A stretch of 62,141 nt of DNA from Omnitrophica bacterium GWA2_41_15 (GTDB taxonomy: Bacteria; Omnitrophota; Gorgyraeia; Gygaellales; Profunditerraquicolaceae), in assembly GCA_919902445.1 (NCBI GenBank), contig CAKKQZ010000060.1, positions 1 through 62,141 on the forward strand, written 5' to 3'. Of this stretch, positions 31,829 through 59,998 are shown piece by piece; positions within the stretch are counted from its first letter, which is position 1, and each line of letters starts with the position of its first letter. The translations under genes and the position numbers were made by a program. The notes beneath the pieces were generated by a model. That model saw only the letters and a list, made by a program, of their open reading frames with translations, ran no database searches and had not been told where the DNA came from.

Positions 31829-31838
31829 AGGATAAATT

Positions 31839-32876: not shown

Positions 32877-32877
32877 A

Positions 32878-33444: not shown

Positions 33445-33447
33445 TCC

Positions 33448-34077: not shown

Positions 34078-34080
34078 ATA

Positions 34081-34674: not shown

Positions 34675-34720
34675 CTAATATTTGATACGAGAACTGAGAA
34701 TCTAGCATCAAGGATATAGA

Positions 34721-36732: not shown

Positions 36733-36741
36733 AAGGTCGTT

Positions 36742-41541: not shown

Positions 41542-41570
41542 TTGACAAACAGGATTAAGTTATTTATCAT
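41542..41570 (+). promoter_or_regulatory. sigma70-type promoter (TTGACA-17 nt-TATCAT)
   Basis: The TTG taken as the ORF start in the track is the -35 hexamer. The -10 is at 41565-41570. Confidence 0.55.
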
Positions 41571-41622
41571 AGGTTTATTCAGTTGTTTATTCAGTAACAG
41601 GTGTGCCATGAGGGAGGTTAGG

Positions 41623-42963: not shown

Positions 42964-43004
42964 TGAGTGTTAGCAGTATCTTAGTTTGGCTACTTAAAAT
43001 TGAG

Positions 43005-43044
43005 AACCCTTCCCCCCTTTTTATGAGGGGAAGGGTTATTTTTT
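43005..43044 (+). terminator. rho-independent terminator
   Basis: 11-bp stem AACCCTTCCCC / GGGGAAGGGTT followed by ATTTTTT. Confidence 0.65.
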
Positions 43045-43058
43045 AAGGAGGTAAGCAA

Positions 43059-43640: not shown

Positions 43641-44150
43641 ATGAAAATAAAAAACAATATTCTTATCTTAGGTTTTTTATTTTGTGGTCTGGGTATTTTA
43701 GCAGGCCTTTTGCTGGCGAAGGCTAAGGTTTCTCTTCCTGTGCATAGACAGATTAGTATTGTATCTTATAAATATGGATATGAGCCAGCTGTGATACGGG
43801 TAAATCAAGGAGATACGATTACTTTGAAGTTAAAATCTAAAGACGTAACCCATGGTTTTTATCTTGAGGGGTATGATTTTGATGCCAAGGTAAGAGGGGA
43901 GATGCCGAGTTTCTGGATCAGGCATCCTTCGAAAAGCGAAGAATACGATAAAAACCCGATAGAAACCTATACCTTTGTGGCAAATAAGCCGGGTAAGTTT
44001 CGTTACCGTTGTTCTATAACTTGCGGCTCATTTCACCCATTTATGCAGGGAGAAATGATTGTTGTGCCCAATTACCTCTTCCCTGTTTCTACCGGGTTAG
44101 CTTTAGGTATGGTCTTTACCTGCCTGATTTATTTTAAGCGAAAAAGATGA
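43641..44150 (+). CDS. membrane-anchored cupredoxin with CuA-type motif (type A)
   Basis: N- and C-terminal TM helices. DVTHGF plus CSITCGSFHPFM (C-x3-C-x3-H-x2-M). Paralogue of 57711-58187. Confidence 0.65.
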   Translation: MKIKNNILILGFLFCGLGILAGLLLAKAKVSLPVHRQISIVSYKYGYEPAVIRVNQGDTITLKLKSKDVTHGFYLEGYDFDAKVRGEMPSFWIRHPSKSEEYDKNPIETYTFVANKPGKFRYRCSITCGSFHPFMQGEMIVVPNYLFPVSTGLALGMVFTCLIYFKRKR

Positions 44151-46978
44151 TTGATTTATTTGAAAAATTGCCCTTTTTATTAAAAGTCTGTAAAAGCCGA
44201 TGGCTGCAGTTTATCATTGTCTTTCCTACCTTATTAATATTTATTGTTTTTCTTTATGCCGGCATTTTTGGAACTCCGGTAGGAAACAAAAATATTATCA
44301 TTGTGTTTGTTTGGATTTTCTGGTGGATTTTGCTTATCGGTTTTATGGTGCCATTTGCATCACGTATATGGTGCTTGGTATGTCCTTTCCCGATTATTGG
44401 CGAATGGCTTCAACGTATGGCATTTATTAAGGTAAGGACTAGCGATACCCTATCAGGCTTAAAAAGTAAATACTTCGGAAAAAATAAACCTTGGCCAAAG
44501 AAACACAGGCACATCTGGTTTCAAAGCCTGGGTTTTCTATCCTTGGCGGTATTCAGCCCATTTTTAGTTACGCGCCCCTTTGTAAGTTTCATTGTCTTGG
44601 GTGGGTTATTTGCGGCGGCAACAGCATTAAGTTTAATCTATAAACAAAGGGTATTTTGTATGTATCTTTGCCCGGTAAGTGGATTCTTAGGGCTTTATTC
44701 TATGACCTCAAAACTTGGGCTTCGGGCAAAAGATGTAGAGTTGTGCAACCGCATTAAGAAAGATGAAGAGTTTAATTTTGATTATGGCATTGCAGCTTGT
44801 AGATTAAGCTGTCCCACAGGCATGGATGCCTCAAGTTATATTGCACTTATAGGCAGAGGCAGATACAAAGAAGCCCTGGAGGTAATAAAAGAAGCATCCC
44901 CCTTTGCTGGCGTTTTAGGCAGGGTGTGCACTCACCCCTGCGAGACTGAATGTGTTCGCAAAGAACTGGATGAGCCCATTTCTATTTGCCGCCTGAAGAG
45001 GTTTGTGGGAGATTATATAGGCTACAATGAGATGCAGCCAGCACAGGAGTTTAAACCGCGTTATAAAGAAAAAATAGCTATTATAGGCGCTGGACCTGCA
45101 GGTTTATCCTGCGCCTATCATTTAGTCAGGAATGGATACCAGACTACTGTTTATGAGGCACTTCCTGTTGCCGGCGGGATGATAAGAGTGGGCATTCCTT
45201 CATATAGACTGCCCAAAGACATTGTTGATAGAGAGATAGAGTATATAAAAAATAGTGGCGCGGATATTCGGACCAATATAGAGATTGGTCGGGATTTAGA
45301 TTTTGAGGAATTAAGAAAGGAGAACCAAGCAATATTTATTGCTGTTGGCGCTTCAGAGTCAAGGAGGCTGAAGATAGAAGGAGAGGATTTAAAAGGTGTT
45401 TACAATGCAATAGATATTTTACAGAAAGTAAGTTTGGGAGAGAAATTAGATTTGGGTAAAAGGGTTATAGTTATTGGCGGAGGTGATACAGCAATAGATA
45501 CAGCCCGGGCAATGCTCAGGCTGGGTTGCAATGAAGTCAGGATAGCATATCGGCGCACTAGAGACGAAATGCCTGCTATACCTGAAGAGGTAGTTGCTGC
45601 AGAAAAGGAAGGTATAAAAATAGATTTTCTTACTGCGCCGGTAAAGATTGAAGGAAGCAATGGCAGGGCAACATCCCTTCTCTGCACAAAGATGAGGTTA
45701 GGTCAACCTGATGAATCTGGAAGGCCACAACCTGTGCAAATCAAGGGTTCTGAGTATCTGATTTCAACTGACAGTATAATTGTAGCTACCGGACAATATT
45801 CAGATATAAACTTTTTACCCAAGGAATTAAGCATAAGTACTGCTGGCACCATAATCGTGGATACTCAAGACATGGTTACTAATATCCCTGGTATTTTTGC
45901 TGGTGGAGATGTGGTGAGCGGGCCTGATATTCTCGTTAAGGCCTTAGGTATGGGTAGGAGGGCTTCTATCGCCATTGACAGGTACCTGCGAGGTGAAGAA
46001 TTAAGCCGTATTTCTTTTTATCCTTCAGAGAAGAGGGTTGAGGAGGTACCCATAGGAATAATTGACAGAGAAGATAGGGTTAAATCACGCTTTCGACCAA
46101 TTGAGGAACGCATTAAAGATTTTAAAGAAGTAGAAGAGGTGTTTACAGAAAATATGGCAGTTCGGGAAGCCAAGAGATGCTTGAGTTGCGGAATATGCGG
46201 GGCGTGTTACCGTGGTTCAGATAAAGGATGGGCCTGCGCTTGGTTTGAAAAGATGGGGGGAATGGATAGAAATAATTATTGTGGCTTATGTATGGAGTGC
46301 GTAAAAAGCTGCCCCTATGATAATATCGGGCTCTATTGGCGGCCATTTGCTTGGGATAAAGATATCAAGGGTTATGATGAATCCTGGAAGTCCTTTATTA
46401 TGCTAGTCTTAGCGATTATTTATTCTATCAATTTGTTAAGCCCTTGGGGCAAGCTTAAGAATTTTCTTAACTTTACTGAAACAGGCACAGTAGGTCATTT
46501 TATCTTACTTAGTGTGAATATGCTTTTATGGTGCCTGGCACTATTTCCATCTATTCATTATCTCTTCTGCAAATTTTCCCAGTTGTTATCTAGGTCTAAA
46601 GAGGTGGAGACAAAAGAATTATTCTTAAAGTATTCCTATGCTTATGTTCCTTTGGGTCTTATGGCCTGGGTGTGTTTTAGCGTGCCGCTACTATTGATTA
46701 ATGGCAGTTATATCCTGGCAGTGATTTCCGACCCCTTTGGTTGGGGCTGGAACCTTTTTGGCACAGCGCATCTTCATTGGAGCCCTATATTACCGCACTG
46801 GGTTCCTTACATACAGGCACTTTTTATATTAGCAGGACTTTTCTACTCTGTAGTATCTGTATTTAAAATAGCCAAGAGGATATTTTCTCAAAAAGAAGAG
46901 GCTTTAAAAAGTATTATTCCCATAGTTGCGCTGCTTTTAATAATAACTATAATCTTTTTTAGGTTATATTTGGGTTAG
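44147..46978 (+). CDS. NapH-like polytopic Fe-S membrane protein with an inserted GltD-like NAD(P)H flavoprotein module
   Basis: WCLVCPFP and FCMYLCPVSG in the TM region. Insert carries CPTGMD...CTHPCETEC, IAIIGAGPAGL and VIGGGDTAID. It rejoins at CGLCMECVKSCPYDN, and the C-terminal TM part ISDPFGWGWNLFGTAH is shared with ORF 58180. Confidence 0.75.
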   Translation: MIDLFEKLPFLLKVCKSRWLQFIIVFPTLLIFIVFLYAGIFGTPVGNKNIIIVFVWIFWWILLIGFMVPFASRIWCLVCPFPIIGEWLQRMAFIKVRTSDTLSGLKSKYFGKNKPWPKKHRHIWFQSLGFLSLAVFSPFLVTRPFVSFIVLGGLFAAATALSLIYKQRVFCMYLCPVSGFLGLYSMTSKLGLRAKDVELCNRIKKDEEFNFDYGIAACRLSCPTGMDASSYIALIGRGRYKEALEVIKEASPFAGVLGRVCTHPCETECVRKELDEPISICRLKRFVGDYIGYNEMQPAQEFKPRYKEKIAIIGAGPAGLSCAYHLVRNGYQTTVYEALPVAGGMIRVGIPSYRLPKDIVDREIEYIKNSGADIRTNIEIGRDLDFEELRKENQAIFIAVGASESRRLKIEGEDLKGVYNAIDILQKVSLGEKLDLGKRVIVIGGGDTAIDTARAMLRLGCNEVRIAYRRTRDEMPAIPEEVVAAEKEGIKIDFLTAPVKIEGSNGRATSLLCTKMRLGQPDESGRPQPVQIKGSEYLISTDSIIVATGQYSDINFLPKELSISTAGTIIVDTQDMVTNIPGIFAGGDVVSGPDILVKALGMGRRASIAIDRYLRGEELSRISFYPSEKRVEEVPIGIIDREDRVKSRFRPIEERIKDFKEVEEVFTENMAVREAKRCLSCGICGACYRGSDKGWACAWFEKMGGMDRNNYCGLCMECVKSCPYDNIGLYWRPFAWDKDIKGYDESWKSFIMLVLAIIYSINLLSPWGKLKNFLNFTETGTVGHFILLSVNMLLWCLALFPSIHYLFCKFSQLLSRSKEVETKELFLKYSYAYVPLGLMAWVCFSVPLLLINGSYILAVISDPFGWGWNLFGTAHLHWSPILPHWVPYIQALFILAGLFYSVVSVFKIAKRIFSQKEEALKSIIPIVALLLIITIIFFRLYLG

Positions 46979-46983
46979 GGGTA

Positions 46984-47457
46984 ATGAAAAAAGAAAATAT
47001 AATAGAGATTTTTCTTTTAGTTTTAGTGGTGGCGTCGGTCATTTTACTCCCCCTTGTTATTATAAAAATTGATAAATACTATCTGGCCAGAAAATTTCCT
47101 AAAAATGCACAGGTGATAACCCTTTACGGCATAGCCAAGGGAGGCCTCTGGACCCAGGAACCGGTTAACAGCTTTAATTACTGGTGGAAGAGGTTTAAAC
47201 GTGCAGAAGAAATTCCCATCCGTGATGACGGCACTCCTATTTTTTTCCGCATAACCAGCACAGACGTGGTACACAGTTTTGCTATTCCTCTTTATCGTAT
47301 AGGTCCTTATGATATAAAGCCAGGAGAATTTACAGAGGTTGAACTTAAAACAGATAAAGAATTAGTAGATACGGGCTTTCTCTGTTGGCAATATTGCGAT
47401 AAAGACCACGAACATATGAAAGGCAGATTAGTTATCTTACCTAAAAATGAGGAGTGA
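46984..47457 (+). CDS. N-terminally anchored cupredoxin with CuA-type motif (type B)
   Basis: TM helix. DVVHSF plus CWQYCDKDHEHM (C-x3-C-x3-H-x2-M). Paralogue of 59609-59998. Confidence 0.6.
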   Translation: MKKENIIEIFLLVLVVASVILLPLVIIKIDKYYLARKFPKNAQVITLYGIAKGGLWTQEPVNSFNYWWKRFKRAEEIPIRDDGTPIFFRITSTDVVHSFAIPLYRIGPYDIKPGEFTEVELKTDKELVDTGFLCWQYCDKDHEHMKGRLVILPKNEE

Positions 47458-48110
47458 AAATTTTTAAAAAATTTATTTTTGTTAGCTTTTTAGCAATATT
47501 TTTTTCACTTATTATAGCCAGCCTCTTTCCTGAAGAAGCTAGCCATAAGTATTTCTATCAGGCACCTTGGTTTAAGTTCCTCTGGTTTATTGTTTCTATT
47601 GGTATAATTATTGTTTTTGTTAATTCTGTCCAAAGAAGAGATTTTGGATTTTCTATAATTTACCTGGGCCTTCTTCTTGTTTTACTGGCGGGCCTTTTGG
47701 CATCCTTATTCAAAGAAGAAGGGTTTATGGAGATGAAAAAAGGCCAGACTCAAGATGACTTCTGGATTAATGATGAGTCTTCAAAATCCTTAGGCTTTTC
47801 CCTATCTTTAAAGGATTTTTCAGTGGAATTTTATCCTAAAGAAGTAAAAGGGATGCGTTTTATTAAAGCTTATAAGACTTCCGTAGGAATTAGCAGAAAT
47901 GGGAAATTGCTTAAAGAGGCTACTATCGAAGTAAACAAGCCTTTAACCTTTGAGGGGTTTTGGTTTTATCAGTATGGTTATGAACCTAAGCTTCCTGAGC
48001 AAACTGTCCTGCAAGTAGTTAAAGATCCCGGACTTCCTTTAGCCTATAGTGGATATTTAATTTTGATGTTAGGTCTAGTGTTCTCATTCAGACGCCTATG
48101 GAAAATTTAG
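47454..48110 (+). CDS. ccsB: short ResB/CcsB-like cytochrome c biogenesis protein
   Basis: TM helices flank LSLKDFSVEFYP...EVNKPLTFEGFWFYQYGY...VVKDPGLP, a ResB-like periplasmic pattern. Much shorter than typical ResB. Confidence 0.6.
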   Translation: MKIFKKFIFVSFLAIFFSLIIASLFPEEASHKYFYQAPWFKFLWFIVSIGIIIVFVNSVQRRDFGFSIIYLGLLLVLLAGLLASLFKEEGFMEMKKGQTQDDFWINDESSKSLGFSLSLKDFSVEFYPKEVKGMRFIKAYKTSVGISRNGKLLKEATIEVNKPLTFEGFWFYQYGYEPKLPEQTVLQVVKDPGLPLAYSGYLILMLGLVFSFRRLWKI

Positions 48111-48862
48111 TTTTAATTTTATATTTACTTTCTTTACTTTTCTATTTTTTATCTTATTTTTTTAAACATAAGTTTTTTTCTCGCTTAGGCTTAATATTTT
48201 TAAGCACAGGACTCCTGTGTAGCTTCTATTTAGCAAGCACACATTTTTATACTACTCAACGCTTACCCTTAACTAACACATCTGAGACTCTTTTTTCACT
48301 GGTTACTCTTGTGGTTCTAGTGTATCTGGCATTAGAATGGAAGTTAGGATTGCCCAGAATATTGGGCTTGAGTGTTAGCTTGATTTCTCTTTCAGGTCTA
48401 TATTTAGCCTTTTACTTTTTCAAAAAGCCTTTGTTGCCTTTACTGCCTGCCCTGCAGAGCAGATGGCTGGTTTTTCATGTTTCAAGTTGTATTGTTGCTT
48501 ATGGTTTTTTTACCCTTGCATTTATCTGCGCAATAATTTACCTTGCCAGGAGCAATCCCGCGCTCATTATTTTCTCTATTATGCACCGTTCTATCTCTGT
48601 GGGGTTTTTATTTCTAACGCTGGGAATAATCTTGGGTTCAATCTGGGGTAAGTCTGCGTGGGGGCACTGGTGGAATTGGGATCCCAAGGAGACCTGGGCG
48701 TTAATTACCTGGTTTATTTATGCTGGCTATATGCATGCCAAATTATTTGGTAATTGGCCTAAAAGGAAACTTGCCCAAATAGCCGTCTTAGGATTTTTGT
48801 CTTGTCTTTTTACTTACCTAGGTGTAAATTATATTTTAAGAGGTTTACATAGCTATGCGTAA
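48098..48862 (+). CDS. ccsA: cytochrome c assembly protein CcsA (system II)
   Basis: Trp-rich WAWGHWWNWDPKETWALITW motif and polytopic profile. Confidence 0.85.
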   Translation: MENLVLILYLLSLLFYFLSYFFKHKFFSRLGLIFLSTGLLCSFYLASTHFYTTQRLPLTNTSETLFSLVTLVVLVYLALEWKLGLPRILGLSVSLISLSGLYLAFYFFKKPLLPLLPALQSRWLVFHVSSCIVAYGFFTLAFICAIIYLARSNPALIIFSIMHRSISVGFLFLTLGIILGSIWGKSAWGHWWNWDPKETWALITWFIYAGYMHAKLFGNWPKRKLAQIAVLGFLSCLFTYLGVNYILRGLHSYA

Positions 48863-49652
48863 AAATAAAATTAAAAATCAAAAAACTCTGCCAGAGAACG
48901 CGGTATATTCACCAATAATTATGGTGGAAAAAATAAAAATTATATTTGGCCTTTTACATTTTGTATCTGTCTTGTTGTTGCCTAGCATTGGATTTTGTGA
49001 CGTCTTGCGTTTGAGAGAAGTCCCAAAAGACAAAGAGGGAAATGAAGTTGAAATCTTGGAGGAAAAAGCAGACGCCTTTATTATTAAGGTTCCCAAGGAC
49101 GAGATTGAAGTAATCCTGAGAAAGCGCCCCACAGAGGCGAAGCTTTGGCATGAAAAACGAATTCTCTGGGAAGAAACCGGCGACTACATAACTATTTATT
49201 TACCAAAAGAAAAGATTATACTTCCTGAGGACTATAAAGGCGATGAATATGATGCCGCCAAAGGCTTAAAAAAAGAACTAACCTCAACAGGAGCTGAAGG
49301 AAGGCCTCCGGAGGCTACTTTTTGGAAAGGCACAAGCAAGATAACTGGTAGAATTTTAAATGGAGGAAACCCTTTATCTGGAGTTAAGATTAGAATTGTC
49401 AATGTTCCTTCTCAGGTGAGCGCGCTCTCCCAGATTCTTGGACCAAAGGTAGAAAGTCAGAAGGAATTGGTCTTTGATGCTACGACAAATGAATTAGGCT
49501 GGTATGAGTTAACTAATATCCCTATGGGAGAATATGATATCTTTTGGTCACTTCCCGGCAGTGAAAGTTGGTATCGCAAGCTAAGTGAAAAACCCAACAT
49601 CACCGTAAGACCGGGTGAGACAGTAAATTATCCAGATATAGAAACAAAATAG
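48855..49652 (+). CDS. secreted hypothetical protein with a CarboxypepD_reg-like C-terminal domain
   Basis: Hydrophobic N-terminus. ITGRILNGGNPLSGVKIRIVN and GWYELTNIPMGEYDIFW. Start codon is uncertain. Confidence 0.4.
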   Translation: MRKNKIKNQKTLPENAVYSPIIMVEKIKIIFGLLHFVSVLLLPSIGFCDVLRLREVPKDKEGNEVEILEEKADAFIIKVPKDEIEVILRKRPTEAKLWHEKRILWEETGDYITIYLPKEKIILPEDYKGDEYDAAKGLKKELTSTGAEGRPPEATFWKGTSKITGRILNGGNPLSGVKIRIVNVPSQVSALSQILGPKVESQKELVFDATTNELGWYELTNIPMGEYDIFWSLPGSESWYRKLSEKPNITVRPGETVNYPDIETK

Positions 49653-49657
49653 CGAAA

Positions 49658-50752
49658 ATGGACTTTTTGATTTTAGGGTTAAATCATAAAACTGCGCCTG
49701 TAGAAATTAGAGAAAGGGTTTCTTTTTCTACATCCGGTATTTCCTGCGCCTTAAGACTCTTACAAAAATACCCTTTTGTTAGTGAGTCTCTTATACTTTC
49801 TACCTGTAACCGAGTTGAGCTCTATGCAGTTGTGGAAGATAAAGTAGAAGGTTTAAAGAGCCTTAAAGAATTTCTATACCGATATCATGAACTCAAAGAT
49901 TCCTTAGACCCGTATCTTTATTTTTATGAAAATGAGCTTGCGCTTAGACATACCTTTAGAGTTACATCATCATTAGACTCTATGGTCGTAGGAGAAAATC
50001 AGATACTCCATCAGGTAAGGCAGGCGTATCTGAGGGCGCAGGAAGCAGGTTCAACGGGTAGAGTTTTAACTTCCGTCTTTCAGGAGGCCTTGCGGGTGGC
50101 AAAGATGGCGCGCACTCAAACTGGAATCAATAAAGGAGCCGTTTCCATAGGTAGTGTAGCTGTAGAATTGGCAAAGGAGATATTAAAGGATTTAAAAGAT
50201 AAAAAAATATTAATTATTGGTGCAGGAAAAGTTAGTGAGCTAACAGTAAAAAACTTAGCAGAGCGAGGAGTAAATTTAATTCTGGTGGCAAACCGTACCT
50301 TTGAAAATGCTCTAAAGCTTGCCCAAATCTTTCAAGGTGAGGCTATAAAGTTTGATAAGTTAAATGAGGTTTTAAAAGAGGTTGATATTGTAATCAGTTC
50401 TACCAATTCTCCCCATTATATTTTAAGAAAAAAAGATATACTTTCAGTTATTAGTGAAAGAGGCCATAAGCCATTATTTCTTATCGACTTAAGCGTTCCC
50501 AGAAATATAGAACACGCTGTCTCAGAGATCAAAGATACGCATCTTTATAATATTGATGACCTTCAGAAGATAAGCCAGTTAAATCTAAAGGAAAGATTAA
50601 AAGAAGCCCATAAAGCAGAGAAAATAGTTAAAGAAGAATCAGATAAGTTTTATGCTAAGATAACAGATATCTTTTTATATGGGCATATGATTGTTGATGT
50701 GAAAGAGGCAATGATGGGATGTTTAAACATCCCCTTTGTGGGTAGTTCATAA
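49658..50752 (+). CDS. hemA: glutamyl-tRNA reductase
   Basis: LGLNHKTAPVEIRE, LSTCNRVELY, GENQIL, IGAGK. C-terminal dimerisation region is shorter than usual. Confidence 0.9.
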   Translation: MDFLILGLNHKTAPVEIRERVSFSTSGISCALRLLQKYPFVSESLILSTCNRVELYAVVEDKVEGLKSLKEFLYRYHELKDSLDPYLYFYENELALRHTFRVTSSLDSMVVGENQILHQVRQAYLRAQEAGSTGRVLTSVFQEALRVAKMARTQTGINKGAVSIGSVAVELAKEILKDLKDKKILIIGAGKVSELTVKNLAERGVNLILVANRTFENALKLAQIFQGEAIKFDKLNEVLKEVDIVISSTNSPHYILRKKDILSVISERGHKPLFLIDLSVPRNIEHAVSEIKDTHLYNIDDLQKISQLNLKERLKEAHKAEKIVKEESDKFYAKITDIFLYGHMIVDVKEAMMGCLNIPFVGSS

Positions 50753-50795: not shown

Positions 50796-51176
50796 ATGGC
50801 TAATACAAAAATACTGATAGTTGACGACGAAAAAGAGATATTAGATGCCTTAAGCAGTATTTTAAAGCGCGCTAACTATAAAGTTTTCCACAACTAAAGG
50901 AAAAGAGGCGGTTGATTAGCCAAAAAAATAATTCCTGACGCAATTATCCTGGACATTATGATGCCTGATATGTCAGGAGATGAAGTTACTGCCGCGCTAT
51001 TAAAAGGCCATTCCACTGCAAAAATCCCCATAATATTCTTAACCGCAATCCTTACCAAAGAAGAAGAAATGGTAAGAGGAAATTTTGGCAGGCAGTTTGT
51101 CATAGTAAAGCCTACCACCGTAGAGAAAATCCTGGAAATGGTTAAGAACGTCCTTGCCGCTAATCCAGCCAGTTAA
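50796..51176 (+). pseudogene. response-regulator receiver with a compensated pair of frameshifts
   Basis: MANTKILIVDDEKEILD...KVF in frame A. STTKGKEAVD is readable only in frame +1 (50887-50916). LAKKIIPDAIILDIMMPDMSGDEV...VIVKP is back in frame A. Frame A has TAA at 50895 and TGA at 50913. Confidence 0.65.
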
Positions 51177-51207
51177 ATCTTAAATGACACCCAGCATACT
51201 AAAAAAC

Positions 51208-51235
51208 TTGACACCTGTGAGTTTTATATTATACT
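51208..51235 (+). promoter_or_regulatory. sigma70-type promoter (TTGACA-16 nt-TATACT)
   Basis: -35 at 51208-51213 and -10 at 51230-51235, upstream of the Rrf2 gene. Confidence 0.5.
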
Positions 51236-51272
51236 AATTTAAGATAAAAATAGTCCCAAATAAAATCAACCC

Positions 51273-51677
51273 ATGCAATTTATCCTACGCAATTCTGACT
51301 ACGCATTAAGAAGCCTCAGCTTTTTGGCAGGCCTTCCTAGGGGTAAGAAAATCAAAGTAAGCACAATAGCGGAAAAACAGGATCTGCCCCCTGCTTTTTT
51401 AAGGAAGATCCTTCTTAAGCTATCCAAGGCGAGGATTGTTGAGTCCAGATCCGGGCCCTGCGGAGGTTTCTCTTTGTCAAGGAAGCCGTCTCAGATTAGC
51501 TTAAAAGAGGTTTTAGAGGCGGTTCAGGGCCGCGTTTCCCTGAATGACTGCCTGTATGATTCTAATTTCTGCAGCCGCTGGAGAAGGTGCAGTGTCAGGC
51601 CGGGGTTATCCGTAATACAGGATAAGTTAATAGGCCTGCTCGATGAATGTAATCTCGGGGATTTTCTTAAGTTATGA
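51273..51677 (+). CDS. Rrf2-family (IscR/NsrR-like) Fe-S transcriptional regulator
   Basis: N-terminal wHTH (DYALRSLSFLA) and a three-Cys cluster CLYDSNFCSRWRRC. The stop codon overlaps the start of the molybdoenzyme gene. Confidence 0.85.
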   Translation: MQFILRNSDYALRSLSFLAGLPRGKKIKVSTIAEKQDLPPAFLRKILLKLSKARIVESRSGPCGGFSLSRKPSQISLKEVLEAVQGRVSLNDCLYDSNFCSRWRRCSVRPGLSVIQDKLIGLLDECNLGDFLKL

Positions 51678-54600
51678 AAAAAATAACACGTAAGCAGTTT
51701 TTAAAGATTTCCCTTGCTTCTTTTGCCGGGTTAATGATGAGTAAGCCGCTCCTTGCAAGCCTCAAGGTAATCCCTGAAGTAGATGATCCATTGCAATATT
51801 ATCCTGATAGGGACTGGGAGAAGATTTACCGCGACCAGTATAGGTATGACTCAACCTTTCACTTCCTATGCGCGCCCAATGATACGCATAACTGTTTATT
51901 AAAGGCTTATGTAAAGAACGATACTGTAATCAAAATAGGCCCGAGTTACGGATACGGAAAGGCAAAGGATATTTACGGTAATCAGGCAAGCCACAGGTGG
52001 GATCCCCGCCTTTGCCAAAAAGGATTGGCTTTAATCCGCAGGATCTACGGCCCAAGAAGAGTGAAGTATCCGATGGTAAGGGAGGGTTTTAAGAAATGGC
52101 TGGATGCAGGATTCCCGAGGGATGAACTGGGGAGGATTCCTCAGGAGTACATTAACCGCGGGAAAGAATCATTTGTAAAGGTTACCTTTGAAGAGGCGAG
52201 CGAGATCGTAGCAAAGGCAATGGTTAATATCGCAACTACTTACACCGGGGATACCGGCAAAGAATTACTGACTAAACAGGGATATGATGAAGCGATGATT
52301 GAGGCAATGAAAGGTGCCGGGACGCAGGTATTAAAGGTACGCGGCGGAATGCCGCTTTTAGGCGCAACCAGGATTTTTGGATTCCAACGTTTTGCTAATT
52401 CCATTGCCTTGCTTGATGATAAAATCAGGAATGTTGGAAAAGAGAACGCCATAGGCGCGCGCAGCTGGGATAGTTATTCTTGGCATACGGATTTGCCTCC
52501 GGGCCACACCATGGTCTGCGGCCAGCAGACAATAGATTTTGATTTAGCCACGGTAGAAAATTCAAAGATAGTGATCTGCTGGGGGATGAACTGGATTTCA
52601 ACCAAGATGCCCGACGCGCATTGGCTCACCGAGGCAAGGGTTAAAGGGACAAAGGTAATAACAATAGCTTGCGAATACCAGTCTACCTCCAATAAGGCAG
52701 ACGCAGCGATAGTCATCCGTCCGGGAAGCGACACTGCTTTTGCGCTGGGGATGGCCAATATTATAATCAGCGAGAAACTTTATGACGTTGATTTTATAAA
52801 AGCCCAGACAGACCTCCCGTTTTTAGTGCGTATGGATACCCTTAAACTTTTAAAGCCGCAGGATGTTATACGTGATTATAAAAATAAGGAATTGCAAAAT
52901 ACGCAGGTTCTTAAAAAAGGAGAAGAAGCCCTAGCGCCTATAAAACAGGACCGCCAGGTAATCGCGGAAAATTTGCGGGAAGAATGGGGAGATTTTCTCG
53001 TATGGAGCCTTGATAAAAATAAAATAGAGGTGATTAGCAGGGATGATGCCGCGGTTGCGGGTAATTTTGCCCTGGAAGGAGAATTTACCCTTGAAACAGT
53101 TGACGGCAAGAAAATTACTGCGCGCCCGGTATTTGATTTAGTAAAAGAGAATGCCTCTTATTTTACTCCGGAAGTAACAAGCGATATCTGCCATGTGAGC
53201 AAAGAGGCGGTAGTTGAGCTTGCGCGTCAAATAGCCGCAGATAAATCCCAAACCTTAATCGCTGTCGGCATGGGGCCAAATCACTTCTTTAATAATGACC
53301 TTAAAGACCGCGCGATATTCCTCGTATGCGCCCTGACAAAAAACATCGGATTCCATAGCGGTAATATAGGCAGTTTCGCCGGAAATTACCGCGGCGCGTA
53401 TTTTAACGGACTGCCTTTTTATATTACAGAAGACCCGTTCAATATAGAATTAGAGCCGGAGAAATTACCGCATAAAAAATCTTACTACAAGGCAGAGTCA
53501 GCGCATTATTATAATTACGGCGATAGGCCTTTACGGGTAGGCAACAAGCTTTTTACAGGTAAGACCCACATACCCACCCCTACTAAATTTATGTGGTTTG
53601 GAAACGGAAATTCCATTCTCGGCAATTTGAAGTGGCACCATGATTTTGTGATGAACACCCTCCCTAAGATAGAATGTGTAGTGGTTAACGAATGGTGGTG
53701 GACTGCATCCTGCGAATACGCTGATGTTGTCTTTGCGGTTGATTCCTGGGCGGAGTTTAAATTCCCGGATATGACAGCCGCCGTGACAAACCCGTTTTTT
53801 CAAATATTTCCCCGCACGCCTTTAAAAAGGCTGCACGACACAAGAAGCGATATTGAGACATTTGCGCAGGTAAGCAAGGCGCTGGCAGCAATTACAGGCG
53901 ACAGCCGTTTTATTGACTACTGGAAATTCGTGCATGAAGGCAAAGTTGAAACTTATTTACAAAGGATAATCGATAATTCGAGCACGCTTAAAGGTTATAA
54001 TATAGAAGAAGTAGAGGCGAATGCAAAAGAAGGGATACCCGCTTTGATTATGACGCGCACCTATCCGAAAATAATGGGTTGGGAGCAGTCAAATGAAAAC
54101 AAGCCGCATTATACAAAATCGGGAAGGATGGAGTTTTACCGGGATGAAAACGAATTTTTAGAGTACGGTGAAAATATTCCGGTGCACCGCGAGCCTGTGG
54201 ATGCGACTTTTTATGAGCCGAATGTTATTGTCTGCGGAGCAAAAGATTTAATCAGGCCCAAGGGCCCGCAGGATTACGGATTATCCCTTGAGGATCAATC
54301 CTGCGAAGTGAGGCAGGTGCGCAATGTGGTGGTTGCCCCGGCAAATCTTACAAAAACCAAACATCCAAGAATAAAAGACGGCTTAGCATTTATTTATATC
54401 ACCCCTAAGTACCGCCACGGAGCGCATACGACTCCGGTTGATACCGATATTATCTCCATGTGGTTCGGCCCGTTCGGCGACCCGTATCGCAGGGACAACA
54501 GGATGCCCTGGGTCGGCGAAGGTTATGTGGATATAAACCCTGAAGACGCCAAGGAATCAGGTATCGAAGACGGGGATTACGTATATATTGACGCTGATCC

Positions 54601-55096
54601 TGATGACAGGCCTTTCAGGGGTTGGCAGAAAAAACCTGAAGACTATAAAGTGCACCGGGCGATGATGCGCGCAAGATATTATCTTGGTATTCCAAGGGGG
54701 ATTTTACGCTCGTGGTTTAATATGTACGTTGCTACCTACGGCTCAGTTGAAGGGCATGAGCAGAATTCGGATAAACTCGCCAGAAACCCGCGCACTGGAT
54801 ATCAGGCGATGTTTAGATACGGGTCGCATCAATCGGCAACAAGGGCGTGGCTTAAGCCGACCTTGATGACAGACTCCTTGGCAAGGAAAGAATACTTCGG
54901 CCAGGTTATAGGAAAAGGTTTTGCCGCCGATATCTACTGCACTACCGGAGCTCCGAAAGAATCATTTGTAAAGATAAGCAAGGCAGAGGATGGCGGGATA
55001 AAGGATAAATTATGGCGGCCTGCAAAATTGGGTTTGCGCCCGGGATATGAAACTGAAGCAATGAAAAAATTCCTCAAGGGAGAATTTATTACATGA
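51674..55096 (+). CDS. type II DMSO-reductase-family molybdopterin oxidoreductase, alpha subunit (Nxr/Nar/Ser/Ebd-like, periplasmic)
   Basis: 1140 aa. Tat-like TRKQFLK signal. N-terminal Fe-S site [12 protein letters not shown]...C. Length and pattern match NarG/NxrA-type catalytic subunits. Confidence 0.85.
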
Positions 55097-56235
55097 ACTA
55101 TAAGGTTTATAACTGGCAATTAAAACGCCAGATGGATTATAAATACCCGGATAACCGGCCTAAAAAGCAGGTTGCCTGGGTTTTTGATACCAATAAATGC
55201 ATTGCCTGCCAGACCTGCACGCTTGCCTGCAAGAATGCCTGGACATCCGGAAAGGGCCAGGAGTATATGTGGTGGAATAATGTAGAGTCCAAGCCCTGGG
55301 GATTTTATCCGTTAGGTTGGGATGTGCGGCTTCTGGAAAAATTAGGGCCCCAGGACTGGAAGGGGGATAAATATATAGGTAAGACCATTTTTGAAAGCGC
55401 ACCCGAAGGCGAGGAGGTGTTGGGGATTACACCGGAAGTAGTTGAGTGGGTGTACCCGAATATCGGAGAAGATGAGGTGAGCAGCATTATACATAATAAG
55501 GATTATATAAAGATCCCGCAGCAGCCATGGATGTTTTATTTACAGAGGATCTGTAATCACTGCACCTATCCCGGCTGTTTGGCTGCCTGTCCGAGGAAGT
55601 CTATTTATAAAAGGCAGGAGGACGGGATAGTCCTTATCGACCAGGAAAGATGCCGCGGGTACCAGGAGTGCGTGCAGGGCTGCCCGTATAAAAAATCGAT
55701 GTTTAGGCCTCATACGCAAAAGTCAGAAAAATGCATCTCTTGTTATCCCGCAGTAGAAAAGGGAATGCAGACCCAGTGCGTGATAAATTGTATCGGAAAA
55801 ATTAGGTTATTCGGTTTTAAAGGCAGATACGGCTCGCCGCGCGAAGATAACCCTATAGACTACCTCATACATTTTAAAAAAATTGCCTTGCCGCTTTATC
55901 CGCAGTTTGGCACTGAGCCGAATGTTTATTATATCCCGCCGATAAATGTCCCGCACGCCTTTAACCAGCAATTATTCGGCCCCGGCTCGAAAAAGTCCGT
56001 TGAGTCATACAAAAAGGCTGTTGAGGATAAGCGCCTTATAGGGCTGCTGATGCTTTTCGGCGCTACTGATTTGATTATTGATTCATTTGATGTCAAGGGG
56101 GGTATAAATGACGGCTTTTGCATCGGCTATAACGATAAGGGTGAAGAGATTGTAAGGGTTCCTTTAAAAGAGCCGGTTATTATTAGGAAAGAATATGATG
56201 AAGAGCGAGATGTGCGTAGAGTTAGTATTACCTAA
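55093..56235 (+). CDS. Fe-S beta subunit (NarH/NxrB-like)
   Basis: Four Cys groups: CIACQTCTLAC, CNHCTYPGCLAACP, CRGYQECVQGCP, CISCYP...CVINC. Confidence 0.85.
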   Translation: MNYKVYNWQLKRQMDYKYPDNRPKKQVAWVFDTNKCIACQTCTLACKNAWTSGKGQEYMWWNNVESKPWGFYPLGWDVRLLEKLGPQDWKGDKYIGKTIFESAPEGEEVLGITPEVVEWVYPNIGEDEVSSIIHNKDYIKIPQQPWMFYLQRICNHCTYPGCLAACPRKSIYKRQEDGIVLIDQERCRGYQECVQGCPYKKSMFRPHTQKSEKCISCYPAVEKGMQTQCVINCIGKIRLFGFKGRYGSPREDNPIDYLIHFKKIALPLYPQFGTEPNVYYIPPINVPHAFNQQLFGPGSKKSVESYKKAVEDKRLIGLLMLFGATDLIIDSFDVKGGINDGFCIGYNDKGEEIVRVPLKEPVIIRKEYDEERDVRRVSIT

Positions 56236-56794
56236 ATCAAAAGCGTTATCAAGCCAATTCGAAAAAGTTGCGCAGGAGAGGCTGTTTGCTTATAAAATGT
56301 TTTCTGCGGCGTTCAATTATCCAGACGATACCTTTTTAAGTTTTTTCCCGGAAGAAAATAAAGAAAAGCTTTTACCGGAATATGATTCGCTTTTCCGCGC
56401 CAATGAAATCTGGCTTTATAGCACAGAGTATTTGGCTGAAAATGAATTCCAGAGGGCAAATTTCCTTGCCGATATATCCGGTTTTTACCGCGCCTTCGGG
56501 CTAGAAATAGATAAAGAAAGGCCTGATTTCCTGGCCACGGAGCTTGAATTTATGCATTTTCTGATTTTTAAGCAGATGTACGCTCTTTGCCGTAATATCA
56601 ATGATTCAAAAGAAAAAGCCGCCATATGCCTTGATGCTCAAAAAAAGTTTTTCAATACATATATTTATCCCTCAGCAAAAAGAATCGCTCAAAAAGTTAT
56701 TGGCAAGAGCAAAGCGGGCTTTTATAAAAGAAAAGCGATAGAGATGCTTGAGTTTCTTGAGTTAGAAATGAAATACATGGAAAAGAAGAAATGA
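56195..56794 (+). CDS. TorD/NarJ-family maturation chaperone (delta subunit)
   Basis: RLFAYKMFSAAFNYP...YDSLF...PDFLATELEFMHFL matches the TorD-like pattern. Start is uncertain because of a 41-nt overlap with the beta subunit. Confidence 0.65.
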   Translation: MMKSEMCVELVLPKSKALSSQFEKVAQERLFAYKMFSAAFNYPDDTFLSFFPEENKEKLLPEYDSLFRANEIWLYSTEYLAENEFQRANFLADISGFYRAFGLEIDKERPDFLATELEFMHFLIFKQMYALCRNINDSKEKAAICLDAQKKFFNTYIYPSAKRIAQKVIGKSKAGFYKRKAIEMLEFLELEMKYMEKKK

Positions 56795-57633
56795 AGAAAT
56801 CTGTTATAATCCTGATCTGCATTGCGGCAGTAATATTATTCGCTCTCCTTGTCAATTACGGAGCTACACATGTCAGGGGAGTTCCGGTTAAAATAGTAGA
56901 ACAGAAGGCCGAGGTTCTTGAAGTGCCGTTTTTTGACAAAGACATAGACTTGAATAAGGGCATTGCAACGGATTTCTGGAGCGGCCTTAAGCCGCAGGAA
57001 ATAAAACTTATTTATCAACTCATGGCCTTACCCTGGCCAAAAAGCTCAACGCCTATGGTTAAAGTAACAGCGTTTCATAATACCAAAGATATTTATTTTT
57101 ACATGGAATGGATTGATGAGACTGAGGATAAGATTTTAGGAGTAAATAAGTTCTCTGATGCCTGCGCAATTATGTTTCCGATGGATGAAAAGGCGCAGGC
57201 CCCGACGCTGATGATGGGTTTTCTGGGAAGAGCGGATATCTGGCACTGGAAGGCAAGCCGGGACATTCAGTTCTGGTTGAAGGAAGAGCCTGTAAATAAT
57301 AAGGTGTATGTAGACCTGTATTATCCGTTTGAAGACAAAGAGACGCTGGTAGTTTCCAAGGAAATCGTAAAGTCAGCAGTAAATGACCTTACGGCTATAA
57401 GAGTAGGCACGGTTACTCCTAAAGAAAACCAGTATGTTGAGGGAAGAGGGTTTTATAATCAGGGTGTATGGCAGGTAGTCTTTAAACGTTCACTTAAAGC
57501 GGTTGATGCGCAGAATGATGCGATTTTTAATAGCGGCAAGCGGCTATGCGCCTTTGCCGTCTGGAACGGCTCAAAAGGAGAGCGCGGCGGCAGAAAATCC
57601 ATCTCAGACTGGGTAGAACTACTAATTAAATAG
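56791..57633 (+). CDS. heme-b gamma subunit, ethylbenzene-dehydrogenase-gamma (EB_dh) family
   Basis: N-terminal hydrophobic segment. SDACAIMFPMDE...MMGFLGRADIWHWKA...AFAVWNGS resembles EbdC/SerC/NxrC-type gamma subunits. Confidence 0.65.
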   Translation: MKKSVIILICIAAVILFALLVNYGATHVRGVPVKIVEQKAEVLEVPFFDKDIDLNKGIATDFWSGLKPQEIKLIYQLMALPWPKSSTPMVKVTAFHNTKDIYFYMEWIDETEDKILGVNKFSDACAIMFPMDEKAQAPTLMMGFLGRADIWHWKASRDIQFWLKEEPVNNKVYVDLYYPFEDKETLVVSKEIVKSAVNDLTAIRVGTVTPKENQYVEGRGFYNQGVWQVVFKRSLKAVDAQNDAIFNSGKRLCAFAVWNGSKGERGGRKSISDWVELLIK

Positions 57634-57690
57634 GGACACCCTTTCTGCTAAAGCTAAGCCGCTCTTTCTGCCAATCTTAAGGGTGTCCCC
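57632..57690. repeat. 59-nt TIR element (copy B)
   Basis: AGGGACACCCTT ... AAGGGTGTCCC terminal inverted repeats (11 bp). The interior matches copy A at 30151-30209 in reverse orientation. Confidence 0.7.
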
Positions 57691-57710
57691 AATAAGGTAA
57701 GGAATAAGAA

Positions 57711-58187
57711 ATGAAAAAACTAATTATTGTCCTGCTCTCGGTTTTATGTTTTACAGCTACTTCTTACGCAGCTGAAAGGTTCTTTGAAATCAAGGCGAAA
57801 AGATTTGTCTATACTCCCAGCATTATCAAGGTAAATAAGGGTGATTTAGTCAGGATCCGCCTTATTAGCGAAGATGTGACCCACGGTTTTTTCCTCGACG
57901 GTTACGGCCTAAATACGTCTACGCATCCGGGACAGGAAGGATTCCTGCAATTTGTTGCGGATAAGCCGGGAAGATTTACTTTTAGGTGCTCGGTTACCTG
58001 CGGAGAATTTCATCCTTATATGGTAGGATATTTTGTAGTAGAAAAAAACCTGCGCCTTTACTTATTTGTGCTTTTGACCGTTCTTTTAGGAGTGGGAAGC
58101 CTTTTAATAATTCTTAAGAATAAACCGCAACAGGCTCATGATAATAATCCGCCGCAGGAGCCAACTATGAATACCAGTAATGGATAA
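57711..58187 (+). CDS. cupredoxin with CuA-type motif (type A), signal peptide plus C-terminal TM anchor
   Basis: DVTHGF plus CSVTCGEFHPYM. Paralogue of 43641-44150. Confidence 0.65.
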   Translation: MKKLIIVLLSVLCFTATSYAAERFFEIKAKRFVYTPSIIKVNKGDLVRIRLISEDVTHGFFLDGYGLNTSTHPGQEGFLQFVADKPGRFTFRCSVTCGEFHPYMVGYFVVEKNLRLYLFVLLTVLLGVGSLLIILKNKPQQAHDNNPPQEPTMNTSNG

Positions 58188-59604
58188 TAAAGATAAATTA
58201 TTCGGCTTGATAGATCTAAACTGGAGGTTTGAACTCACAAAGTTTAAGCAGGTCGGGAAGCTTTTTAAATCCCGCTGGTTTCCGCTCCTTCCTATTATCG
58301 TAAATCTTTTTATTTTTGTCATAATTTTACTCGCCGGTTTTATCGGAGGCTATTCCTCCGGGAGTTACAATTTCGGGATCATGATTGTCTGGATACTCTG
58401 GTGGGTAATGCTGATGTTTATTCTGGTTCCCGGTTTTTCGCGGTCATGGTGCCTTATGTGCCCGTTTCCCATATTCTCCGACTGGTTTCAAAGGAAAAGG
58501 CTCTTCGGCGTCAGGCAGGGTAAGCTGGAAGGGCTGGGGCTTAAATGGCCGAAACAACTTAAAAATATGTGGGTGATGAATATCGGTTTTTTAGTCACGA
58601 CATTCTTCTCCGGGCTTTTTACCGTAAAACCTTTCGCTACTTTTGTGCTTTTGGGAGGAATAATTCTGCTTGCTTTCTTAATCGGTTTAATCTTTGAAAA
58701 GCGCTCTTTTTGTTTGTACGTCTGCCCGGTTTCAGGATTCCAGGGGCTTTATGCACAGTTTGCGACTGCTGAAATAAGAAGGATGAACCCTGAGCTTTGC
58801 AAGAACCATAAAGTTAAAACCTGTTTTGTGGGTAATGAATGCGGATACGGCTGCCCTTGGATGCTCACCCCCTTTGATTTTAAGAAAAATACTTACTGCG
58901 GTATGTGCCTTGAATGTTTTAAGACCTGCCCTTATGATAATATGGGATTTTTCCTAAGGCCGCCCGGAGTAGATTTGCTTTCCGATACTCCGAGAGAGCC
59001 GCGCCGGCTTGATGAGGCGTGGAAGGCCTTTATTATGCTTGGGATTGCCGCTGTGTTTTTCTTAACTATGCAGGGGCCATGGGGGGTATTAAAGGATATG
59101 GTCCGCCAGGCGACATTTAAGGGCTGGCTTATTTTTATAACCCTGCATTCATTCTTCTGCCTTGTCGGTATACCGGGGATTTTCTTTATCTTCTCATGCC
59201 TCTCCAAATTATTCAGCGGAAACAAAGAGGTTTCCTTAAGGCAAATTTTTATAAATTTCGCTTACACTCTTGTGCCTATTGGGTTAGGCGTTTGGATTGC
59301 ATTTAGCGTCGGGATAATACTTCCTAACGGCAGCTACCTCATTCATGTGATCTCTGACCCCTTTGCCTGGGGTTGGAATCTTTTTGGCACAGCGCATTTC
59401 CCTTGGACTCCGGTATTCACCGGAAGCTTGGGGTATATACAAGGCTTTGTCCTGGTAATTTTTTACTTATTCGCAACAGCCTTAGGGTTTCGTCTTTCAA
59501 AGCAGACTTACCTCGACTTAAGCCAGGCAAAGCGGGGTTGGATTCCGATTTTAATATTCTTAACTTTAGTTACGATATTATTTTTGTGGTTATATCTGGG
59601 GTGA
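58180..59604 (+). CDS. NapH-like polytopic Fe-S membrane protein (no flavoprotein insert)
   Basis: WCLMCPFP, FCLYVCPVSG, CFVGNECGYGCPW, CGMCLECFKTCPYDN, and C-terminal ISDPFAWGWNLFGTAH. Collinear with the N- and C-terminal parts of ORF 44147. Confidence 0.7.
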   Translation: MDNKDKLFGLIDLNWRFELTKFKQVGKLFKSRWFPLLPIIVNLFIFVIILLAGFIGGYSSGSYNFGIMIVWILWWVMLMFILVPGFSRSWCLMCPFPIFSDWFQRKRLFGVRQGKLEGLGLKWPKQLKNMWVMNIGFLVTTFFSGLFTVKPFATFVLLGGIILLAFLIGLIFEKRSFCLYVCPVSGFQGLYAQFATAEIRRMNPELCKNHKVKTCFVGNECGYGCPWMLTPFDFKKNTYCGMCLECFKTCPYDNMGFFLRPPGVDLLSDTPREPRRLDEAWKAFIMLGIAAVFFLTMQGPWGVLKDMVRQATFKGWLIFITLHSFFCLVGIPGIFFIFSCLSKLFSGNKEVSLRQIFINFAYTLVPIGLGVWIAFSVGIILPNGSYLIHVISDPFAWGWNLFGTAHFPWTPVFTGSLGYIQGFVLVIFYLFATALGFRLSKQTYLDLSQAKRGWIPILIFLTLVTILFLWLYLG

Positions 59605-59608
59605 GAAT

Positions 59609-59998
59609 ATGCAGAAAAAAGAATTAATCGCTGGTTTACTAGTGGTTTTATCAACAGTAGGGACTGTTGCCGGTATTTACGGTATTGAGAATTACCGCAG
59701 GAAAAAATTCTATACTGTTGAACTTATTGCCCGGGCCCCTGAAAACGGAAATTGGTACCCGCAGCAGCTCAAAATCCCCTACGGGATGAAAGAAGTGAAG
59801 ATCCTCATACGCAATATAGAAACTGTTACCCACGGATTCGCTATTCCTGATTTAGGTGTTGCGGTTGGCCAGATTAAGGCAGGAGAGGTAAAGGTAGTCA
59901 GGTTTATCCCTGACAAAAGAGGAACTTTCCCGTTTATGTGCACGGTCTGGTGCTCAACCCGCCATATGCAGATGCGCGGCGAATTGATTATTGAATAA
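59609..59998 (+). CDS. N-terminally anchored cupredoxin with CuA-type motif (type B)
   Basis: TVTHGF plus CTVWCSTRHMQM. Paralogue of 46984-47457. Its 3' end overlaps the convergent kinase gene by 11 nt. Confidence 0.6.
   Translation: MQKKELIAGLLVVLSTVGTVAGIYGIENYRRKKFYTVELIARAPENGNWYPQQLKIPYGMKEVKILIRNIETVTHGFAIPDLGVAVGQIKAGEVKVVRFIPDKRGTFPFMCTVWCSTRHMQMRGELIIE

Follow-up and report, generated by a model that had tools for sequence, protein, structure and literature searches.

We report the analysis of positions 1 to 62,141 of contig CAKKQZ010000060.1 (hereafter, the window) from the assembly GCA_919902445.1 of Omnitrophica bacterium GWA2_41_15, a 1.29 Mb draft genome in 97 contigs that is 94.6% complete, and in particular of an operon encoding an enzyme of the nitrite oxidoreductase and nitrate reductase (NXR/NAR) lineage. 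The stretch from 51273 to 59998 is one eight-gene operon on the plus strand. It opens with the gene for an Rrf2-family regulator of 134 amino acids (51273–51677; PF02082, TIGR00738), which is followed by those for an NxrA/NarG-like catalytic alpha subunit of 1140 amino acids (51674–55096), recognised as a molybdopterin oxidoreductase, an NxrB/NarH-like beta subunit of 380 amino acids (55093–56235; Fer4_11, type II beta), a cytoplasmic maturation chaperone of the NarJ/TorD type with 199 amino acids (56195–56794; Nitrate_red_del) and an NxrC/Orf7-like gamma subunit of 280 amino acids with an EB_dh haem b domain (56791–57633). Behind these lie the genes for a first CuA-type cupredoxin (158 amino acids, 57711–58187), assigned by its CuA motif and its syntenic position behind nxrC, for a polytopic NapH-like membrane iron-sulphur (Fe-S) protein of 474 amino acids with Fer4_5/NapH-like cysteine clusters (58180–59604) and, last in the operon, for a second CuA-type cupredoxin (129 amino acids, 59609–59998), again with a CuA motif. 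An original prediction, made from the letters of the window, had described five genes between 51273 and 57633 in the order alpha-beta-chaperone-gamma, with a haem-b EB_dh subunit, behind a regulator; all five open reading frames are found on the plus strand exactly there and the family assignments agree with that order, though the operon does not end at 57633, three further genes extending it to 59998.

Genes of the operon overlap by 4–8 bp in the ATGA manner, as seen at the Rrf2 stop/alpha start, alpha/beta and delta/gamma junctions, and are therefore translationally coupled, as had been noticed for the first of these junctions. The sole intergenic gap, of 77 nt, separates nxrC from the first CuA gene and holds a hairpin element with a perfect 11-bp stem (GGGACACCCTT ... 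AAGGGTGTCCC, 57634–57691, plus strand). A convergent histidine-kinase gene overlaps the end of the gene for CuA cupredoxin 2 and closes the unit. Chance is of no concern in these assignments because the reading frames are long and the homologies very strong.

The Pfam-level match of the alpha subunit is to the Molybdopterin oxidoreductase family and its best NCBIfam match is to the alpha model of the type II dimethyl sulphoxide (DMSO) reductases. Among solved structures it is matched over residues 3–1139 of its 1140, with an E value of 1.6e-270, by NXR-A of Kuenenia stuttgartiensis (KsNXR; PDB 7B04), a full-length match that bears out the earlier proposal of a periplasmic, NxrA-like member of the type II DMSO reductases; the next solved relatives, namely perchlorate reductase (E 3.9e-61), ethylbenzene dehydrogenase and NarG, give weaker and partial matches. 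The curated models do not reach their cut-offs on this protein, the score being 324.2 bits against 984.75 for TIGR03479 (DMSO_red_II_alp) and 162.6 bits against 1084.15 for TIGR01580 (narG), and the type II beta, gamma and delta models of NCBIfam likewise score below cut-off on the other subunits, which implies that the lineage is not covered by these models.

Sequence alignment to PDB 7B04 assigns C66, D70, C74 and C114 as the ligands of the FS0 Fe-S cluster (a 3Cys/1Asp set), Asn69 as the substrate residue and Asp273 as the molybdenum ligand, and all six residues are invariant in a 13-sequence alignment (A1). In KsNXR-A the FS0 cluster is bound by C67, D71, C75 and C115, D275 binds molybdenum, and N70 faces the metal as a substrate-coordinating residue, for which ethylbenzene dehydrogenase has an isoleucine (PMC8387239). 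In the type II enzymes of the outgroup, Cys or His patterns stand where the 3Cys/1Asp motif would be. The earlier observation of an Asp in this motif, as in periplasmic NXR, is thus in agreement with the published 3Cys/1Asp coordination and its D71. The motif was read at that stage as H-x2-C-x3-D-x3-C, and while these letters are present the real ligand set is C66-x3-D70-x3-C74...C114; His63 was rejected as a ligand because it is variable outside the subclade, where T, V, Y, C and others stand at this position among 80 relatives, and because Cys67 is what serves as the ligand in the aligned structure. Modelling the alpha subunit with AlphaFold2 from the same 13 sequences gave an unusable result (mean predicted local distance difference test score 46, predicted template modelling score 0.40).

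The alpha subunit has a putative signal of the twin-arginine translocation (Tat) type, T-R-K-Q-F-L-K, in which RK takes the place of RR, just as the original prediction had read it. Among the 34 closest homologues 14 share this variant, and one has RS; since RK is so common in the subclade, it is no error of assembly. TatC is encoded 7 kb downstream on the same contig. In one protein that is 80% identical to the alpha subunit (P0011) the signal reads T-R-S-E-F-L-K, with a single basic residue of the twin-arginine pair, and so departs from the motif more strongly than does the signal studied here.

For the beta subunit, NXR-B of 7B04 is the best match (E 5.7e-113). Its cysteines fall into three groups of four and one of three (CRGYQECVQGC), the latter expected to hold a [3Fe-4S] cluster, and as it has no signal peptide it would leave the cytoplasm together with the alpha subunit. 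The chaperone matches PF02613 with 53 bits and TIGR03482 below cut-off. The gamma subunit, which begins with a hydrophobic segment that is a signal or an anchor, is best matched by NXR-C of 7B04 (E 7.5e-21) and also by EbdC (2IVF), and it keeps the haem ligands Met (in PTLMMG) and Lys269 (in GRKSIS), whose equivalents bind haem b in KsNXR-C and EbdC (PMC8387239). CuA cupredoxin 1, whose place behind nxrC is kept in 10 related loci, combines a Sec signal with a membrane helix at its C terminus and the pattern H58...C93-x3-C97-x3-H101-x2-M104; CuA cupredoxin 2 has an N-terminal membrane helix and H75...C111-x3-C115-x3-H119-x2-M122. The NapH-like protein has about 8–9 helices and carries its cysteine clusters in a cytoplasmic loop.

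In order to place the enzyme, a GTDB-wide scan by signature peptides of the family was used, which returned more than 600 stretches, the best 80 of which were retained as related loci. The trees combined these 80 loci with the first 940 residues of KsNXR-A, with its named relatives (Brocadiia, NC10, Nitrospinota and others) and with type II enzymes from further afield; the set contained no named representatives of Nitrospira, Nitrotoga or Hydrogenobacter. Within the NXR/NAR group, which has 100% support, there are two sister clades. One of them, itself 100%-supported, is made up of Kuenenia, Brocadiia, NC10 and Nitrospinota and excludes the GWA2_41_15 enzyme, which falls in the second and is 38% identical to KsNXR-A in its alpha subunit; the Ser/Clr-type and other type II enzymes branch outside the NXR/NAR group, with about 35% identity over partial length. 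Membership of the canonical NXR clade (anammox, Nitrospina, NC10), to which the Nitrospira NXR belongs according to the literature, is rejected by this tree placement and identity, such that the kinship with NxrA that had been suggested holds for the NXR/NAR lineage and not for the Nitrospira/anammox clade itself.

A nine-row group that contains the GWA2_41_15 alpha subunit, with 98–99% support in the Shimodaira-Hasegawa-like approximate likelihood ratio test (SH-aLRT) in two trees, further comprises two Omnitrophica, two Planctomycetota, one Aquidulcis and three Methanoperedens sequences. The closest among the best 80 are Omnitrophica (79–81% identity) and the three Methanoperedens genomes (76–77%), with Elusimicrobia as the next neighbours in the tree. 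Cassette synteny was followed by tblastn of the operon proteins against the 80 loci, and the order NxrA-B-D-C-CuA-NapH-CuA recurs in Omnitrophica (L003), in Methanoperedens (L005–L007) and in L012, L015, L019 and L059. The copper/NapH part is present in a Hadarchaeota locus (L053), where NxrD and NxrC went undetected by tblastn, and in L013 the order is kept up to CuA1, at which point the contig ends. Such an enzyme is of a kind already known, with related operons in hundreds of genomes and mention in several papers, and its branch of the periplasmic NXR/NAR lineage is recognised and widespread but has seen little biochemical study. The original prediction had looked to a well-characterised clade with a known substrate and standard electron partners as a ground for refutation; the substrate of the clade is indeed already known, which lowers the novelty of the enzyme, and its electron partners, the CuA and NapH-like proteins, are non-standard but had been recorded before in Methanoperedens (PMC4683180).

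An NxrA-like gene was found in 23 of 401 Omnitrophota genomes, only about six of which carry the Methanoperedens type, and it is missing from all 20 of the listed genomes of the same family, which fits lateral spread of the cassette. Most of the other 17 NxrA-positive Omnitrophota have a different type, 41–44% identical to the GWA2_41_15 alpha subunit; to judge by the 64–65% identity of NCBI-labelled Omnitrophica proteins to KsNXR-A, this type may belong to the Kuenenia/Nitrospina-type clade. Carriers of the 41–44% type include the genomes G028, G380 and G148, and G028 has, in addition, a clade-B copy that is 60% identical to the GWA2_41_15 alpha subunit.

The genome around the operon bears on the direction in which the enzyme works. 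Genes for MoeA, a UbiA prenyltransferase, a polyprenyl synthase and Ahb-type haem synthesis lie within the window, as does an Nqr-type complex at 30329–35794 (the Nqr/UbiA/polyprenyl synthase region covers 30329–37725). Searches of the 94.6%-complete genome found no COX1/NOR family member, cytochrome bd or cytochrome b, nor NrfA, NirK or NirS, and the sole credible CxxCH protein genome-wide is a Cyc2-like porin (41542–42963). With no acceptor more oxidising than nitrate found, nitrite oxidation would be left without an electron sink, which argues for nitrate reduction with release of nitrite; as cytochrome c and a bc1 complex are likewise missing, nothing but the NapH-like protein and the two CuA proteins visibly connects the enzyme with the cytoplasmic side. 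The original prediction had held the substrate to be beyond reading from the sequence, and to this extent it can now be amended, the 77% identity to the Methanoperedens enzymes, the cluster architecture and Asn69 narrowing the choice to nitrate and nitrite. We consider it probable that the operon encodes a Tat-exported periplasmic nitrate/nitrite oxidoreductase of the Methanoperedens type, with a molybdenum bis-molybdopterin guanine dinucleotide (Mo-bis-MGD) cofactor, and that it is most likely a respiratory nitrate reductase releasing nitrite.

Such a reductase might work as follows. The NarJ-type chaperone would mature the alpha subunit, and the alpha-beta pair would be exported folded by Tat despite its RK signal. 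Electrons would pass from the cytoplasmic side to the NapH-like membrane Fe-S protein, on to the two membrane-anchored CuA cupredoxins and from there to the gamma haem, a path standing in for the cytochrome c/bc1 route. Much as in Nap systems, the reductase itself would conserve no energy, which would instead be gained at an earlier step of the chain, such as the Nqr-type complex at 30329–35794.

Several points weigh against this assignment and should be set beside it. The Tat motif is RK instead of RR, and the gene absences come from a 97-contig draft and fall short of proof. The step from quinol to the NapH-like protein is uncertain, the futalosine family of quinone biosynthesis having not been found in the genome and MenD only below cut-off; the cell may salvage a quinone head group or may be without a classical quinone pool. 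A paralogous NapH-like protein encoded upstream (44147–46978) carries a GltD-type NAD(P)H module, which offers a quinone-independent route. To our knowledge, what the CuA and NapH-like proteins do has been probed biochemically in no organism. Lastly, the enzymes of this lineage are bidirectional (PMC8387239) and Nitrotoga, a true nitrite oxidiser, is reported to belong to the sister clade (PMC6050957), so that the direction assigned here rests on genome context only.

Under another reading the enzyme runs oxidatively, as a nitrite oxidoreductase feeding the CuA/NapH chain in the way of Nitrotoga, Nitrospira and the anammox bacteria. KsNXR oxidises nitrite (PMC8387239), the Nitrotoga NXR has been placed in the sister clade (PMC6050957), and a high-potential Met/Lys haem b together with CuA centres would be well matched to electrons of about +0.4 V; however, the searches of the genome turned up no acceptor for those electrons, neither a haem-copper oxidase nor a cytochrome bd or b, and Methanoperedens, the nearest relative with known physiology (77% identity and the same cassette), reduces nitrate, so we regard nitrite oxidation as very unlikely. 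The Ser/Clr/Ddh/Ebd/Pcr enzymes, too, have this gene order and an EB_dh gamma subunit, the next solved structures after KsNXR are those of perchlorate reductase (the match at E 3.9e-61) and ethylbenzene dehydrogenase, and a review suggests that the Methanoperedens nitrate reductases may reduce perchlorate and similar substrates (PMC13046784), all of which might favour chlorate, perchlorate, selenate or the like as the substrate. Those enzymes are nevertheless distant, with their partial-length identity and their branches outside the NXR/NAR group; moreover, Asn69, whose counterpart coordinates substrate in KsNXR, is invariant where ethylbenzene dehydrogenase has Ile, and the 3Cys/1Asp FS0 motif marks the NXR/NAR lineage. 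Another oxyanion as the substrate therefore strikes us as highly improbable.

A further reading, which concerns the source of electrons, would put the reductase at the end of a chain that oxidises Fe(II) with nitrate or takes up extracellular electrons, with electrons passing from the Cyc2-like porin through CuA to the gamma haem and bypassing cytoplasmic donors. The Cyc2-like gene, which encodes the only c-type cytochrome of the genome, lies 9 kb upstream, two more CuA proteins, a GltD-NapH fusion and CcsBA are encoded directly upstream, and the Cyc2-to-Nxr arrangement is syntenic in a distant member of the Omnitrophota (L013, NxrA 65% identical). Yet in L095, whose NxrA is 94% identical, MoeA, Ahb-like genes, Rrf2 and NxrA are contiguous without the Cyc2 block, which implies that the enzyme is independent of the block, and Methanoperedens and other cassette-bearing loci are without it as well; a purely periplasmic path from Fe(II) to nitrate would, furthermore, conserve no energy, and the function of Cyc2 is only predicted. 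We consider this route unlikely, and prefer a nitrate reductase that draws its electrons from the cytoplasmic side.

The Cyc2 region merits description in its own right. The block of about 9.7 kb from Cyc2 to HemA (41542–50752), holding the Cyc2-like porin, CuA proteins, the GltD-NapH fusion, CcsBA and HemA, intervenes in GWA2_41_15 together with a broken regulator gene (about 520 bp), and the CcsBA maturation pair, HemA and the Ahb-type haem genes are retained beside the porin gene. In L095 (1–4314) MoeA, two radical-SAM genes and a NirDL-like gene are followed directly by Rrf2-nxrA, the Rrf2 protein being 86% identical; the absence of the block there points to an insertion or deletion difference between near relatives. 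The stretch from 40 to 16400 of L013 encodes a Cyc2-like protein, a CarboxypepD_reg protein, CuA, NapH-like, CuA, ResB and CcsA ... NxrABDC and CuA, so that in at least two lineages the nitrate reductase is accompanied by the iron/copper block. Among the 80 related loci, 31 (within L028–L081, and mostly from Acidobacteriota, Planctomycetota and Binatota) have a gene that is 29–36% identical to the GltD-like part of 44147–46978; it lies about 4–6 kb upstream of nxrA, sometimes with a distant Rrf2 gene before it, and this enzyme clade may thus be partnered repeatedly by an NAD(P)H flavoprotein. A wider proposal can be put forward only tentatively, and we think it rather improbable as a whole: that these ultra-small Omnitrophota have a copper-wired chain free of cytochrome c and bc1, in which membrane Fe-S proteins of the NapH kind (one with an inserted NAD(P)H flavoprotein module) carry electrons directly across the membrane to CuA cupredoxins and thence to the reductase, with a strain-dependent Cyc2 link for Fe(II) or extracellular electrons and dedicated control by an Fe-S-sensing Rrf2 protein. 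An IS200/Y1-type transposase gene (PF01797), of a kind associated with repetitive extragenic palindrome (REP)-like repeats, lies further upstream at 28689–29279.

The regulator at the head of the operon belongs to the Rrf2 family by its match to PF02082 and its score of 97.6 bits against TIGR00738 (cut-off 73.3), but reaches only 53.5 bits against the NsrR model NF008240 (cut-off 182) and is also below the cut-offs of the IscR, RirA, SufR and CymR models. The three-cysteine cluster noted in the original prediction is present, spaced C-x6-C-x5-C; Asp9, Cys93, Cys100 and Cys106 align with Asp8, Cys93, Cys99 and Cys105, the [4Fe-4S] ligands of Streptomyces coelicolor NsrR (5N07), with which the protein has in common the winged-helix Rrf2 fold family and the cluster ligands. 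Its family is small, with 15 clusters in 5.8 billion proteins, mostly directly ahead of nxrA, and D9 together with C-x6-C-x5-C is kept in 15 of 15 homologues. The Rrf2 gene overlaps nxrA by ATGA in L095 and L096 (Rrf2 86% identical) and in the Planctomycetia locus L004 (41%), and by one base in L099 (61%); this coupling thus recurs in relatives and is a conserved feature typical of the lineage. In L015 the Rrf2 gene is divergent and stands 2 kb upstream of nxrA, and on one further contig (Rrf2 52% identical) a 747-residue gene product is encoded directly behind it. The notion that the family is exclusive to nxr operons was rejected, as a 55% identical homologue in L097/L098 precedes a radical-SAM/epimerase gene. 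In L097 (5425–6926) and L098 this homologue is ATGA-coupled to the radical-SAM/NAD-epimerase fusion gene, and MutH-like and N6/N4 methyltransferase genes are neighbours. The regulator might autoregulate the nitrate reductase operon through an Fe-S cluster that senses nitric oxide, oxygen or redox state, or Fe-S supply.

Upstream of the Rrf2 gene, on the plus strand, lies a sigma-70-like promoter (51208–51235) made up of TTGACA, a spacer of 16 nt and TATACT, with 11 of 12 matches; in L095 the sequence from the -10 element through the leader is nearly identical despite a different upstream gene. An AT-rich imperfect palindrome with 90% complementarity (TTTTATATTA / TAAGATAAAA, 51222–51249, plus strand) overlaps the -10 element, is conserved in L095 and, judged from its sequence, may be a candidate operator for the Rrf2 protein. 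Just upstream of the promoter a CheY-like response-regulator gene (50797–51177) is broken, its frame being lost and regained over about 35 nt (...YKVF|STTKGKEAVD|LAKKIIPD...) with two in-frame stops, and this is either a pseudogene or the result of two assembly indels.

Part of the interest of the operon lies in its relation to the cluster of Methanoperedens, which was laterally acquired and of which it is the closest bacterial counterpart among the best 80 loci; as its nearest relatives are Omnitrophota- and Planctomycetota-like bacteria, it bears on the question of where Methanoperedens obtained the cluster. Its respiratory setting is minimal, with one c-type cytochrome and with the bc1 complex, an oxidase and nitrite reductase not found in the genome, and this reduced background leaves the CuA and NapH-like proteins as the only plausible suppliers of electrons. 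The organism, or a recombinant operon, would therefore be a cleaner system than Methanoperedens in which to test the function of these proteins. If the assignment is true, these cells would turn nitrate to nitrite in anoxic groundwater and so supply neighbours that carry out anammox or denitrification. Also of modest interest are the Rrf2 regulator dedicated to the operon, the RK signal and a respiratory background that is extremely reduced.

Among the systems already described, the enzyme resembles in part the NXR-ABC of Kuenenia (7B04; Chicano et al. 2021, PMC8387239), with full-length homology in all three subunits, the 3Cys/1Asp FS0 ligands, the substrate Asn, the molybdenum-ligand Asp and the Met/Lys haem b in common. 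It differs in that the alpha subunits are only 38% identical and Kuenenia lies in the other sister clade, in having no NXR-T tubule protein and no anammoxosome, and in having CuA/NapH partners in its cluster and no cytochrome c genes. A sister clade has been described that holds the 'Ca. Nitrotoga fabula' NXR and putative or proven periplasmic NARs, including that of Hydrogenobacter thermophilus (Kitzinger et al. 2018, PMC6050957), and the enzymes of Nitrotoga and Hydrogenobaculum are about 40% identical to Kuenenia NXR-A (PMC8387239). From the topology and the levels of identity (38% against about 40%), we infer that the clade of the GWA2_41_15 enzyme is this published one. Nitrotoga oxidises nitrite aerobically and has terminal oxidases, none of which were found in the GWA2_41_15 genome.

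The likeness to Methanoperedens goes considerably further. The cluster described there reads NarG-NarH-NarJ-Orf7-HCOII-NapH-HCOII (Arshad et al. 2015, PMC4683180 Table 1); all of its genes are highly transcribed during nitrate-dependent methane oxidation, its NarG has a Tat signal and its NapH has nine transmembrane helices (PMC4683180). In trees the Methanoperedens nitrate reductases fall with NxrA, and lateral acquisition has been reported for them (Leu et al., PMC7327174). The seven genes are found in identical order at 51674–59998 of the window, CuA cupredoxin 1 corresponding to the Methanoperedens 'HCO II' and the NapH-like protein to its 'NapH', with identities of 76–77% for alpha, 74–76% for beta, 56–58% for gamma, 56–57% for the NapH-like protein and 44–57% for the CuA proteins. 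The alpha subunits lie in one clade (99% SH-aLRT), and in both the alpha subunit has a signal, putatively of the Tat type in GWA2_41_15, and the gamma subunit a putative Sec signal. The host here, in contrast, is a bacterium with a 1.29-Mb genome and not an archaeon, an Rrf2 gene is translationally joined to the front of the operon, and the Tat motif is RK; and whereas models for Methanoperedens feed the enzyme through NrfA, multihaem cytochromes or a Rieske/cytochrome b complex, none of these were found in the GWA2_41_15 genome. The operon is a bacterial counterpart of the biochemically uncharacterised nitrate reductase system that has been described, and physiologically anchored, in Methanoperedens.

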